From: a virus
Taxonomy: Duplodnaviria; Heunggongvirae; Uroviricota; Caudoviricetes
Reading direction: 5' to 3' (one strand)
DNA length: 13,766 nucleotides
Virus record (IMG/VR): IMGVR_UViG_2585427710_000002
Coordinates: 1-13,766 of that record
The position numbers are program-made. This document shows, piece by piece, positions 1 through 3,000 of the stretch (position 1 is the first letter of the stretch; every line of letters begins with the position of its first letter).

Positions 1-3000
1 GAAAAACGAGTATTTTTAGTCATCCTGTTTACCTCTTTCTCAGGAAGTTTAGTCTCCAGGATTCCCGGGGCGGTTCACCGGCTCAGTGCCGTAAAGCTGC
101 GCCAAAAGTTCGGTGGTAATAACAGGAATCTGGTTATGGGTGATCGGGGAGAGAGTTTCAACAGAAATTTGAGTTGTCATAATGACGCCCTCTGGTGGTT
201 TCTTAATAACTCACCACCGACGACGCCAATCGTCTGGTGGTGAACTGTGCAGGGTTGGCGTAACCGGGAAACCGACCGGCGCGGATCTCTCCGCCCCCAC
301 ACAGCCCACCATAATTCAGATGTGCGCGTGCATACGACAATAAAAAACACGCTCGCGGCGTGTATCTGTCGCGGTCTCTATCCAGGACGCCAATCCCGAC
401 GCCAGATTTTGCTGGCGCGTGAGGAATATAGCCCCGAATAAATCATCGCGTCAATCACCTTGTTTTCCTCGCACGATGTCTTAGCCACCGGATATCCCAC
501 AGATGAGCCGTGTAGTTGAAGGTTTTTACGTCAGATTTTTTTGGGATTAGCTTGCGTTTATTTCTGGAGCGTTTCGTTGGAAGGTATTTGCAGTTTTCGC
601 AGATGATGTCGGTGATGCTTCTTTGCTGTCGCCTCATGCCGCCCTCCTGACGCCCTGCCCGATCGCCATCAATGCCGCTTTGGATACAGTAGTAAACATT
701 CGTCGAGGACTGATGAACGGTCGCCAAATCAGCAGCATGGAGCCTTTGCTGTTTCCCTTCTTCTCCAGCCCTGTCGATGGTTCGATAAAATTAATCCGTC
801 CATCAGTGATGATGCGAACTTCGTCGACACTCTCCAGAGCCTTGCTGAACCATCCGACTGACATATCCTCTGGCACAAGCATCACTACCGTCTGTCGCTG
901 TTGTATGCACTGCTCAGCGGCTTTTTCCACCCACGGCCTGATATTGCTGTACGGTGGGTTATTCCAGATTGCACCGTGGCTTACCCACTCAGAATTGAGC
1001 GCGTCGTCGGCCTCAGTTAGCCAGTGAGCACACAGAGCATTTTTGTCGCTCGCTGCCGAATCCAGCCAGAATCCAAACTCAATATCCAGTGCATCAAAAA
1101 GCCAAAGCGGCGTTTGCCAGCAGTCCTTGTCGTGTGCTGGCGTATTTGATTTGATAGTCATGCAGCCCTACCTTTTCGTTGTGACCATTCATATTCTCGC
1201 CGGGAGTCATCACTCCACCGCACGTTGCGCTCTGAGCCGAACCAGAACATGATTTCGATAAGCTCAGTCATGCTGGCCTTCCGCATTTTGCTGGTACGCA
1301 CGCCAAGCATGACAACGCCACCGTCGATACCAGGCACACTTCGTTGCTCCAGTTTTTTGGTCTTAAGCCACAGGGCAGTGAACAGGTCTTTCCAGTCTTC
1401 CGGCGCCAGCCGTTGACCATGCCATAGCACCTGACGCGAAACATCGTTCAGCATCGGCCACATACGGTCATTCTGCGCTTTGCTGCGCTTGGGTTCTTTA
1501 ACGTGGACTTCGTGGGGTGACTTGTCGTCGATGGGTAGTGAGAGAATGGCGTCTATGGCGTTATTTCTGATTGCTTCGTTGCGAAGCAGAAAGGTTTGCT
1601 TCATCTCCTGCTCTCCGGTTCCATTTTTCAGCCGCCGCAGCAACTGATGGTGCCCATGCCCCCCTGGCTTCACAGAGGTCACATTCTGCATAGCCCCACA
1701 CATCAATATTTATTCCGGCCTCAACCCACAGACGAGCATTACCGCCGCAAAACGGACATTCTTTTAGCTTTGGCTGGGTTAATGATAGGTCGCTCATGCT
1801 CACTCCTTCACTTTAAATCCAGACTCCGGATAATTCTGTTGCGCTGAAACTCATTGTTGAGTTTGAACAACCGTCGAAGAACACGGTCACGCGGATAGCG
1901 TCGTGCGGCAGGTGAATGCTCATACAACTCATCAAGCGGCAAACTGGACGATGAACGATACCGATACCAACGCACCAACTCTTCACGAAAATTAGCCCTG
2001 ACAAGCTCAGCTATCGTACTCATTTCTTAAAACCTCCTCAAACGCATTCTGACGCATTTTTCATTCTCGCTGCTTATTGGCATGCCTTGCACGCGTTTAC
2101 CTCGCTACAGAGCGATTGTGATGCCTTAAAAGCGATTTATTGAAGTGATATTTGCTTAATCGAAATTCTTTTCTTTGATTCCTGCGGCCCTGATGGCTTT
2201 CATTACTGCAATTACCGTTTTGTCACGCCCATCCTCATAACCCATCGCATAAGCACCTTCTTCACCATCTTTCCAAAAGTCGTCATTCGATTCGGGCCAG
2301 TCGATATCCAGTTCAATAGCAGAGCGCGATGCCTGCCATATCACCCAGGCAAACTCTTTTAATTCATCGTCTCCCGTGAACTGGCTTTTGTCTTTTGACC
2401 ACCAGTTTTCAAACTGTCGGTAGCTATCGTTCACTTCCCTCTCCCCCAAATAAAAAGGCCTGCGATTACCAGCAGGCCTGTTATTAGCTCAGTGATGTAG
2501 ATGGTCATCTTTTAACTCCATATACCGCCAATACCCGTTTCATCGCTGCACTCTGGCGACACTCCTTAAAAATCAGGTTCGTGCTCATCTTTCCTTCCCG
2601 TTCTTCCCTGGTAGCAAACCGGTAATACACCGTTCGCCAGACCTTACCTTCGATAACCAGAAGACCTGCCCGTGCCATTTTAGCCGCAGCCTGATTTATG
2701 CTGGTTACGGTTGCGCCTGTTACCGCGGAAACGTCCTGTGCACAGAAGTTCTTATGCGTCCCGAGGTAATGAATAATTGCCTCTTTGCCCGTCATACACT
2801 TGCTCCTTTCAGTCCGAACTTAGCTTTAATTTCTGCGATCTTCGCCAGAGCCTGTGCTCGATTTAGAGGTCTGCCGCCCATGACAGGAAGTTGTTTTACT
2901 GGTTCAGGTATCGTCTCACCACGGTTAATTCGTGCTGTCATACAGGTCAGTTCATCGGCAGCCTTGCGCCGTAATTCCGCGTCAGTCAGCGCATTGGCCC

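Follow-up and report, generated by a model that had tools for sequence, protein, structure and literature searches.

Does a lambdoid nin region that carries both a putative restriction-alleviation gene and a DNA methyltransferase contain a dedicated defence against host restriction, or has it gathered these genes as separate pieces of a mosaic early operon? The question is raised by a block at positions 631-2432 of the window analysed here, a stretch of 13,766 nucleotides from virus record IMGVR_UViG_2585427710_000002. An earlier note on this DNA regarded the block as a nin region rebuilt as an anti-restriction cluster, whose genes would protect phage DNA early in infection. We consider it probable, at roughly 0.8, that it is instead an ordinary Stx-phage nin module of exchangeable cassettes, containing a predicted GATC-specific Dam methyltransferase and a Lar-like factor, and expressed as delayed-early genes.

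Position of the block between ren and ninE

All of the genes are on the minus strand. In the direction of transcription they are ren (2505-2795; phrog_142, E 1.7e-41); a 92-aa open reading frame with a GTG start, referred to here as ORF92 (2156-2434; phrog_343); a 71-aa open reading frame (1808-2023; PF23975 DUF7301, E 3.8e-26); a Lar-family zinc-ribbon gene of 78 aa (1561-1797; PF14354 and TIGR03655); ninB, encoding an Orf-family recombination mediator (1158-1604; PF05772, E 1.8e-48; phrog_72); dam, an orphan N6-adenine methyltransferase gene (634-1161; PF05869, E 6.4e-65; TIGR01712); and ninE (455-637; PF05322, E 4e-40), which forms the lambda-like right-hand flank of the block. Matches to Pfam, PHROG and TIGR models bear out the identities that had been assigned to these genes, and each gene lies where the earlier note had placed it.

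Alignment with lambda by blastn delimits the block precisely. Window positions 2433-4522 are 94% identical to lambda cII-O-P-ren together with the intergenic spacer, with the homology stopping one base short of the lambda ninB ATG; positions 450-630 match lambda ninE at 94% identity; and no lambda DNA similarity was found by blastn between these two matches. The segment from 631 to 2432 (minus strand), with ORF92, the DUF7301 gene, the Lar-like gene, a non-lambda ninB and dam, is a clean cassette swap relative to lambda, between lambda-like ren and ninE. It replaces lambda ninB-ninC-ninD, and the description of dam as standing in place of ninC and ninD was accurate: lambda has ninC (a PAPS-reductase-like gene) and ninD at the site where the window phage has dam. 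Lambda also has no genes between ren and ninB, whereas ORF92, the DUF7301 gene and the Lar-like gene are found there in the window. The window NinB belongs to the NinB/Orf family (PF05772, 164.1 bits against a cut-off of 23.8) and is 45% identical to lambda NinB (BLASTP, E 3e-36). Common to the two nin regions are the position between ren and ninE, the operon logic, the ATGA-type overlaps and the 94% identical flanks.

The ATGA stop/start overlaps reported previously are present in the sequence, one joining the ninB stop to the dam start (1158-1161, minus strand; GGGCTGCATGACTATC) and the other joining the dam stop to the ninE start (634-637, minus strand; GGGCGGCATGAGGCGA). A further overlap, of 44 nt (1561-1604) and absent from the earlier note, lies between the 3' end of the Lar-like gene and the start of ninB; the same coordinates for these two genes appear in the NCBI PGAP annotation of an identical chromosome. 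ATGA overlaps also occur in the window at O/P and P/ren, and lambda has four-base start/stop overlaps at ninB/ninC, ninC/ninD, ninE/ninF, ninG/ninH and ninI/Q, so that ATGA chaining is general nin-region syntax and not special to this block. Translational coupling along ninB-dam-ninE is plausible, given the short gaps and the overlapping stop and start codons.

Between ren and ORF92 the terminator scan identified an intrinsic-terminator-like hairpin with a T-run (2456-2479, minus strand), composed of an 8-bp stem with 6 GC pairs followed by TTTTATTT. The hairpin falls where the window aligns, at 94% identity, with the lambda ren-ninB spacer and presumably corresponds by position to lambda tR2, and the cassette should therefore need N antitermination. 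Because the block lies downstream of this post-ren hairpin, its genes are expected to form a delayed-early operon and not an immediate one; transcription of the module would start at pR and reach it once N allows read-through of the hairpin. The Rfam search found no RNA element inside the block. Early protection of phage DNA, as had been proposed, is difficult to reconcile with this arrangement, since genes behind a terminator cannot protect incoming DNA before its first contact with a restriction enzyme.

The block is also well represented among sequenced phages. The window is 100% identical at the DNA level to Stx1a phages and to Stx1a prophages in the chromosomes of E. coli O145, and positions 76-2508 are 99.5% identical (blastn) to phage VT2-Sakai. 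The same gene series, with the same sizes and overlaps, is present in VT2-Sakai (AP000422, H0101-H0106) and in 933W (L0091, Orf6, Orf7, L0093 and L0094, which the VT2-Sakai record names as counterparts): open reading frames of 279, 216 and 237 nt, a 447-nt ninB with the 44-nt overlap, a 528-nt dam and a 183-nt ninE. The replication modules upstream differ, in that VT2-Sakai has an O protein, a 478-aa P annotated as HK022-like ('DNA hericase') and then H0100, unlike the lambda-like O, P and ren of the window. Of 5426 complete E. coli genomes, 392 contain at least 80% of window positions 400-2900, as do 98 phage records. Stx-converting lambdoid phages of the 933W/VT2-Sakai type usually carry this accessory module in their nin region, and 'rebuilt' is not an apt term for it. 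It is also already known, as a Stx prophage early-gene module sequenced in 1999-2000 and available in GenBank from the time of the 933W and VT2-Sakai genomes; PGAP annotates the methyltransferase, Lar, NinB, NinE, ren and DUF7301 by name, and lar was named among the recognisable Stx-phage accessory genes by 2012 (PMC3430580).

The Dam methyltransferase and the Lar-family protein

The methyltransferase matches the Dam family model PF05869 at 218.4 bits (cut-off 28.1) over model positions 1-167 of 169 and the equivalog TIGR01712 at 265.9 bits (cut-off 97.05), and direct translation places the catalytic (D/N)PPY motif IV, in the form NPPY, at residues 68-71 (949-960, minus strand). It is indeed an orphan enzyme, as had been supposed: its neighbours are NinB and NinE, there is no adjacent nuclease, and its best PADLOC matches are to 'oMTase' models. 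A search of the PDB found no solved structure related by sequence to Dam or to the Lar-like protein. Dam is 100% identical over 175 aa (tblastn) to the 'dam' product of VT2-Sakai (AP000422; M.EcoVT2Dam), and because of this identity to an enzyme whose activity is drawn from the literature and REBASE, it is most likely GATC-methylating. M.EcoVT2 is GATC-specific according to Table 3 of PMC6602927, and the cloning of the VT-2 dam methyltransferase (Radlinska & Bujnicki 2001, pmid 11720311) is cited in PMC7556043, which describes the role of phage Dam enzymes as 'still not well understood'. The VT2-Sakai record notes similarity of dam to HP1 Orf13 and T1 M.T1, members of the phage T1/HP1 Dam family. 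The window enzyme and M.EcoVT2Dam are identical at the protein level, with a different phage background here (Stx1a, lambda-type replication genes), and a REBASE name and listed specificity already exist, such that the discovery value of the block is low. The window enzyme most likely adds N6-methyl to GATC on replicating phage or prophage DNA, topping up the activity of host Dam.

E. coli already makes the GATC mark, which renders restriction protection by the phage Dam doubtful in a normal host. The Dam cassette could alternatively serve replication, recombination or lysogeny: full GATC methylation would leave no hemimethylated DNA for MutH to nick or SeqA to sequester, and it could permit recombination between diverged phages with NinB/Orf, or contribute to prophage stability. 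We regard this as unlikely on balance, although there are several points in its favour. The target is the host's regulatory mark and not a foreign restriction site, and the same Dam allele lies directly 3' of ninB whichever NinB allele is present. Phage Phi24B encodes a Dam to which that of VT2-Sakai is listed as 100% identical, and its dam CDS, 528 nt long like the one here, was detected in lysogen cultures (PMC3342100); stable lysogeny of 933W reportedly requires host Dam (Murphy 2008, as cited in PMC3342100). Against this, the argument is one of guilt by association, and the ninB-dam adjacency may represent a favoured recombination junction; nor does the distribution of target sites lend it support. 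The window contains 35 GATC sites against 53-61 expected under low-order models, and a GATC-free stretch of 2.2 kb (661-2837) covers the block, but this gap is not significant (p ~0.11, third-order Markov model at the observed GATC density), and avoidance of GATC was rejected.

Assignment of the 78-aa protein to the Lar family is well founded. It exceeds the cut-offs of PF14354 (41.2 bits against 28.6) and TIGR03655 (62.3 against 39.6), matches phrog_599 (E 1.4e-39), and is genuinely homologous to Rac Lar (= RalR, b1348), the two being 36% identical across 58 aa (E 9e-10). Both proteins have the CPFCG...C..CE zinc ribbon and an E-x-WN-x-R motif, and in the four-cysteine core CPFCG and CDLCE align with CPFCG and CNGCE of RalR; in the PDB search the Lar-like protein weakly resembled eL43, which is also a zinc-ribbon protein. 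Each gene lies beside recombination genes, the Lar-like gene adjoining ninB in the nin region and Rac Lar adjoining recT/recE in the recET region. The Lar-like protein is 14 aa longer than Rac Lar, with its tail encoded inside ninB, and its gene occurs in 119 phage records, nearly all from Stx or E. coli phages. Rac Lar, the one characterised member, is also the only one reported to relieve type I (EcoKI) restriction and to enhance modification (King & Murray 1995, as cited in PMC4041452). Judging from family membership and the 36% identity, the Lar-like protein most likely has the same effect, weakening restriction by type I enzymes of the EcoKI family and promoting modification.

The same Rac protein is, under the name RalR, also described as a toxin with non-specific DNase activity, an endodeoxyribonuclease with the sRNA antitoxin RalA (PMC4041452), and the Lar-like protein could be a toxin of this sort in a type I toxin-antitoxin pair and not a restriction alleviator. 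This we find very improbable. The RalR equivalog NF007260 does match weakly (E 3.6e-06), but at 27.6 bits, far under its cut-off of 113; the gene is in a lytic-cycle operon and overlaps ninB, an odd location for a toxin; and no RNA family match, RalA-like or other, was found in or near the gene in an Rfam scan of 432-2600 (from which the RalA model may be absent). The 132-nt spacer at 2024-2155 folds no better than shuffled sequences (z = 0.03). A parallel for restriction alleviation is lambda Ral, an N-dependent delayed-early factor of the pL operon that alleviates type I restriction. We propose Ral as a functional analogue of the Lar-like protein, unrelated in sequence and encoded in a different operon; the Ral family had no match among the pL-side open reading frames that were scanned.

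Assortment of the cassettes in related phages

If Dam and Lar formed a single anti-restriction unit, they would be expected to co-occur across lineages beyond mosaic linkage. Their distribution was compared in the best 80 loci each for window-type and lambda-type NinB in IMG/VR; these were chosen as near-identical NinB alleles and thus sample two lineages and not all lambdoid phages. With window-type NinB, DUF7301, Lar and Dam are present together in 51 of 52 loci (from the best 80). With lambda-type NinB, the same Dam allele (99-100% identical) is found in 50 of 68 loci, whereas Lar, DUF7301 or ORF92 occurs in 0 of 68 (again from the best 80). Dam directly abuts the lambda-type ninB in 53 of the 58 Dam-bearing loci among the best 80, and the order ninB-dam-ninE (47/68) is seen far more often with this allele than the lambda order ninB-ninC-ninD-ninE (8/68; IMG/VR, from the best 80). 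Lambda is evidently a poor guide to what constitutes a normal nin region, ninB-dam-ninE being the common arrangement. An identical Dam allele thus directly follows two NinB alleles that are mutually only 45% identical, and Lar is confined to one of them. That Dam is present in 50 of 68 lambda-type loci, none of which has Lar, DUF7301 or ORF92, argues that Dam and Lar are independent cassettes that assort separately, and the co-occurrence expected of a single unit is not seen.

These data bear directly on the proposal of a dedicated, co-adapted island in which Dam, Lar and the two small proteins would jointly protect phage DNA at an early stage of infection. A Lar-family gene and an orphan methyltransferase do share an operon with tight spacing, and the genes travel together in nearly all of the window-type NinB loci; ORF92 is moreover strongly acidic (pI 4.4, net charge -9.5), as are some DNA-mimic anti-restriction proteins. 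We nonetheless judge such an island improbable, as Dam and Lar do not form a conserved pair, GATC methylation is redundant with host Dam, the middle of the block is occupied by ninB, a recombination gene, the delayed-early position would be too late for incoming DNA, and neither small protein has homology to known anti-defence or defence families. What survives of the anti-restriction cluster is its content, a Lar homologue and an orphan methyltransferase; its unity and its unusual character do not. The module that we favour would be a string of separately exchangeable cassettes and not one functional unit: first the phrog_343 gene; second the DUF7301 gene with the Lar-family gene, tied to one ninB allele through the 44-nt overlap; third the NinB/Orf recombination mediator; and fourth the orphan Dam, all of them located in this instance in a Stx1a prophage with lambda-like O, P and ren.

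The ORF92 and DUF7301 proteins

The two remaining genes of the block had been suggested as further anti-defence factors. ORF92 is a 'hypothetical protein' in PGAP (WP_001000127) and is assigned to PF26207 in precomputed annotations, and it has no match of its own in the local copy of Pfam. Remote-homology searches (word-indexed, full profile, Pfam and PHROGs with 51 diverse members, and PDB profile) returned only phrog_343/PF26207, which are uncharacterised families, and its AF2 model (pLDDT 70, with a disordered middle) had no Foldseek match below E = 0.1 in either the PDB or BFVD. The DUF7301 protein is basic (pI 10.8) and has homologues only in Enterobacterales in two homology searches; its all-helical AF2 model (pLDDT 74) gave nothing below E = 3 in Foldseek against the PDB. 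We note that a match to P22 Cro (1rzs, E 5.8e-07), obtained in a PDB profile search with one alignment (A2), is an artefact of a single chimeric row, P0114, and was rejected because that row, its sole source, has a Cro/YdaS-like N-terminus.

These searches thus provide no tie between either protein and a known anti-defence or defence family, and they neither support nor oppose such a role. The chance that one of the two is a new anti-defence or host-takeover factor seems slim, and ORF92 is the better candidate. Its family comprises 415 representative clusters in a profile search of 1.84 billion representatives, and within the family the terminal helices are conserved and the segment between them is hypervariable, which would fit a DNA mimic or a binding surface shaped by an arms race. 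Phrog_343/PF26207 and DUF7301 together represent two widespread and uncharacterised small proteins in clinically important Stx phages.

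Composition of the nin block

Gene order was established from an ORF listing and family scans, and every gene concerned is encoded on the minus strand. The genes cII (4461-4757; PGAP name), O (3490-4428; PF04492), P (2792-3493; PF06992) and ren (2505-2795; phrog_142) are followed by ORF92, a 92-aa ORF with a GTG start (2156-2434; phrog_343), a 71-aa DUF7301 ORF (1808-2023; PF23975), a Lar-family gene (1561-1797; PF14354 at 41.2 bits, cut-off 28.6; TIGR03655 at 62.3, cut-off 39.6), ninB (1158-1604; PF05772), a Dam-type methyltransferase gene (634-1161; PF05869, E 6.4e-65; TIGR01712 equivalog, 265.9 bits against 97) and ninE (455-637; PF05322). 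The NPPY motif of the methyltransferase is at 949-960, and ATGA overlaps join ninB to dam (1158-1161) and dam to ninE (634-637); the observation in the earlier note thus holds at the coordinates it gave. A detail absent from that note is that the Lar-like gene extends 44 nt into ninB. O/P and P/ren are likewise joined by ATGA overlaps, and many nin genes on the lambda map are linked through four-base overlaps.

The flanks of the block are lambda-like. Lambda cII-O-P-ren and the ren-ninB spacer are 94% identical to 2433-4522, the match ending one base short of the lambda ninB start codon, and lambda ninE is 94% identical to 450-630. Because no lambda DNA match was found between these two stretches, 631-2432 is a cassette that cleanly takes the place of lambda ninB-ninC-ninD. 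The Stx2 phage VT2-Sakai is 99.5% identical to 76-2508 and its record gives the same series, H0101 (279 nt), H0102 (216 nt), H0103 (237 nt), H0104 (ninB), dam and ninE, citing the 933W counterparts L0091, Orf6, Orf7, L0093 and L0094. Taken together, the lambda-like flanks and the VT2-Sakai-like series indicate that the block is the standard Stx-phage nin module, here fused to lambda-type replication genes.

Positions 400-2900 match several Stx1a-converting phages (LC645429 and others) and E. coli O145 chromosomes at 100% identity; of 5426 complete E. coli genomes, 392 contain at least 80% of this segment, as do 98 phage records. We note that in two O145 strains (hits H31 and H37) an IS3-family transposase splits the match in two. 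On the identical O145 RM8988 chromosome, PGAP annotates the genes at coordinates that agree with those here, under the names 'protein ren', 'hypothetical protein', 'DUF7301 family protein', 'Lar family restriction alleviation protein', 'recombination protein NinB', 'phage N-6-adenine-methyltransferase' and 'NinE family protein'. The nin block had thus been sequenced and annotated before, and its methyltransferase carries both a name and a recorded specificity.

Between ren and ORF92, at 2456-2479, there is a terminator-like hairpin with a T-run, within the spacer shared with lambda at 94% identity; by position it presumably corresponds to lambda tR2. Because of this placement the block should be delayed-early and N-dependent, and its products unavailable as the DNA enters the cell.

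Association of dam and lar with NinB alleles

The window-type NinB is 45% identical to that of lambda, and co-occurrence was sampled in the best 80 IMG/VR loci with each allele, scoring neighbouring genes by tblastn (52 usable window-type and 68 usable lambda-type loci). DUF7301, Lar and Dam accompany the window-type NinB in 51 of 52 loci. Beside the lambda-type NinB the same Dam allele is present in 50 of 68, at 99-100% identity to the Dam encoded here, whereas tblastn found Lar, DUF7301 or ORF92 in none of the 68. The occurrence of this Dam without Lar shows that the two belong to separate mosaic cassettes, and the unified anti-restriction cluster proposed in the earlier note overreaches. 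In 47 of the 68 lambda-type loci, all of which encode a NinB with 100% identity to that of lambda, dam replaces both ninC and ninD, in three it accompanies ninC, and the full lambda ninC-ninD pair is restricted to eight. The ninB-Dam junction is gapless in 53 of 58 Dam-carrying lambda-type loci. Among the sampled loci ninB-dam-ninE is thus the common arrangement and lambda's own order a minority one, and to call the region 'rebuilt' was also too strong for what is a standard Stx-phage module; the gene identities are what stand of the earlier interpretation.

The 44 nt shared with ninB (1561-1604) supply the Lar-like protein with its C-terminal tail (EANLSASQRSNQK), and the same tail (EANI..SQRSNQK) ends some ORF92 homologues (P0018, P0024, P0031). 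Whichever gene precedes this ninB allele therefore reads into it, and the overlap would seem to mark a recombination junction, not a dedicated means of coupling.

The methyltransferase and the Lar-like protein

The Dam protein and the VT2-Sakai 'dam' product, M.EcoVT2Dam in REBASE, share 100% identity; in a methylome study M.EcoVT2 is entered as specific for GATC (PMC6602927). Its neighbours are NinB and NinE and it matches PADLOC 'oMTase' models, bearing out its description as an orphan. The same gene was detected in lysogen cultures of phage Phi24B, whose authors suggested that phage Dam supplements host Dam because stable 933W lysogeny is reported, in work cited there, to need host Dam (PMC3342100). 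That Dam shields the phage from restriction in its normal host is doubtful, since E. coli Dam already makes the same GATC mark. GATC is under-represented in the window: mono- or trinucleotide-based estimates predict 53-61 sites, and 35 are present. A 2.2-kb GATC-free stretch spans ren through dam (661-2837); given the GATC density observed, such a gap does not reach significance (p about 0.11). Prophage regions without GATC have been reported (PMC6602927).

The Lar-family assignment holds: the protein passes the Lar family cut-offs and is 36% identical to RalR (Lar) of the Rac prophage over 58 residues (E 9e-10), sharing a CPFCG...C..CE zinc ribbon and an E-x-WN-x-R motif, and it does not reach the RalR equivalog cut-off (27.6 bits versus 113). 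Rac Lar is credited with alleviating restriction and enhancing modification (King & Murray 1995, as cited in PMC4041452), and is also characterised as a non-specific DNase toxin with a partner sRNA, RalA (PMC4041452); an RNA-family scan found no RNA family in or beside the gene here. Of the 119 phage records with this allele, 118 have it at no less than 95% identity; nearly all of the 119 are Stx or E. coli phages, and in those sampled that have gene annotation it overlaps ninB. Several records already label it Lar-like, and lar was named a recognisable accessory gene of Stx phages in 2012 (PMC3430580).

ORF92, DUF7301 and neighbouring elements

ORF92 is acidic (pI 4.4, net charge -9.5) and belongs to a family (phrog_343 / PF26207) of 415 representative clusters at 50% identity, far larger than a first search suggested. 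Helices at both the N- and the C-terminus are conserved in its alignment (A3), which also has a WQASRAAIE motif, a conserved C-terminal IRAAGIKVKE and a hypervariable middle; a few members have N-terminal extensions, one of them Cys-rich (P0156). All sampled members match phrog_343 alone, with no match in the local copy of Pfam, and the AF2 model of ORF92 (pLDDT 70) has no structural match by Foldseek against PDB and BFVD or by PDB profile search. The DUF7301 protein is basic (pI 10.8), confined with its homologues to Enterobacterales, and predicted all-helical (AF2, pLDDT 74), with no structural match found. A PDB profile match to P22 Cro was rejected as an artefact, since it stems from a single chimeric homologue among the aligned proteins, P0114, whose Cro/YdaS-like N-terminus (PF14549, PF15943) precedes a DUF7301 C-terminus. 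Neither protein matches PADLOC models; either may act in anti-defence, the evidence tipping neither way.

Just downstream of ninE, Rfam gathering-level matches on the minus strand mark an isrK Hfq-binding RNA (342-418), a C4 antisense RNA (233-316) and the C4 a1/b1 targets (379-431); there is also a terminator-like hairpin at 347-363. A P22AR/antirepressor-type gene lies downstream of these elements, which resemble an antirepressor control cassette of the P1/P7 immI or Gifsy-1 IsrK kind. In the O145 RM8988 prophage (locus L001, 1250-1972, outside the window and downstream of ninE) the KilAC-domain, roi-like antirepressor gene that separates ninE from ninG contains an internal stop and is a pseudogene. 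In the cro position, the gene at 4874-5152 (minus) fits the YdaS family (PF15943, Pfam 'YdaS_toxin') better than lambda or P22 Cro, and the repressor (5209-5916) combines an HTH with an S24 peptidase. A lambda cIII thermoregulator element (8450-8508, plus; Rfam, 84.2 bits) lies upstream of, or overlaps, the cIII gene in the pL operon.
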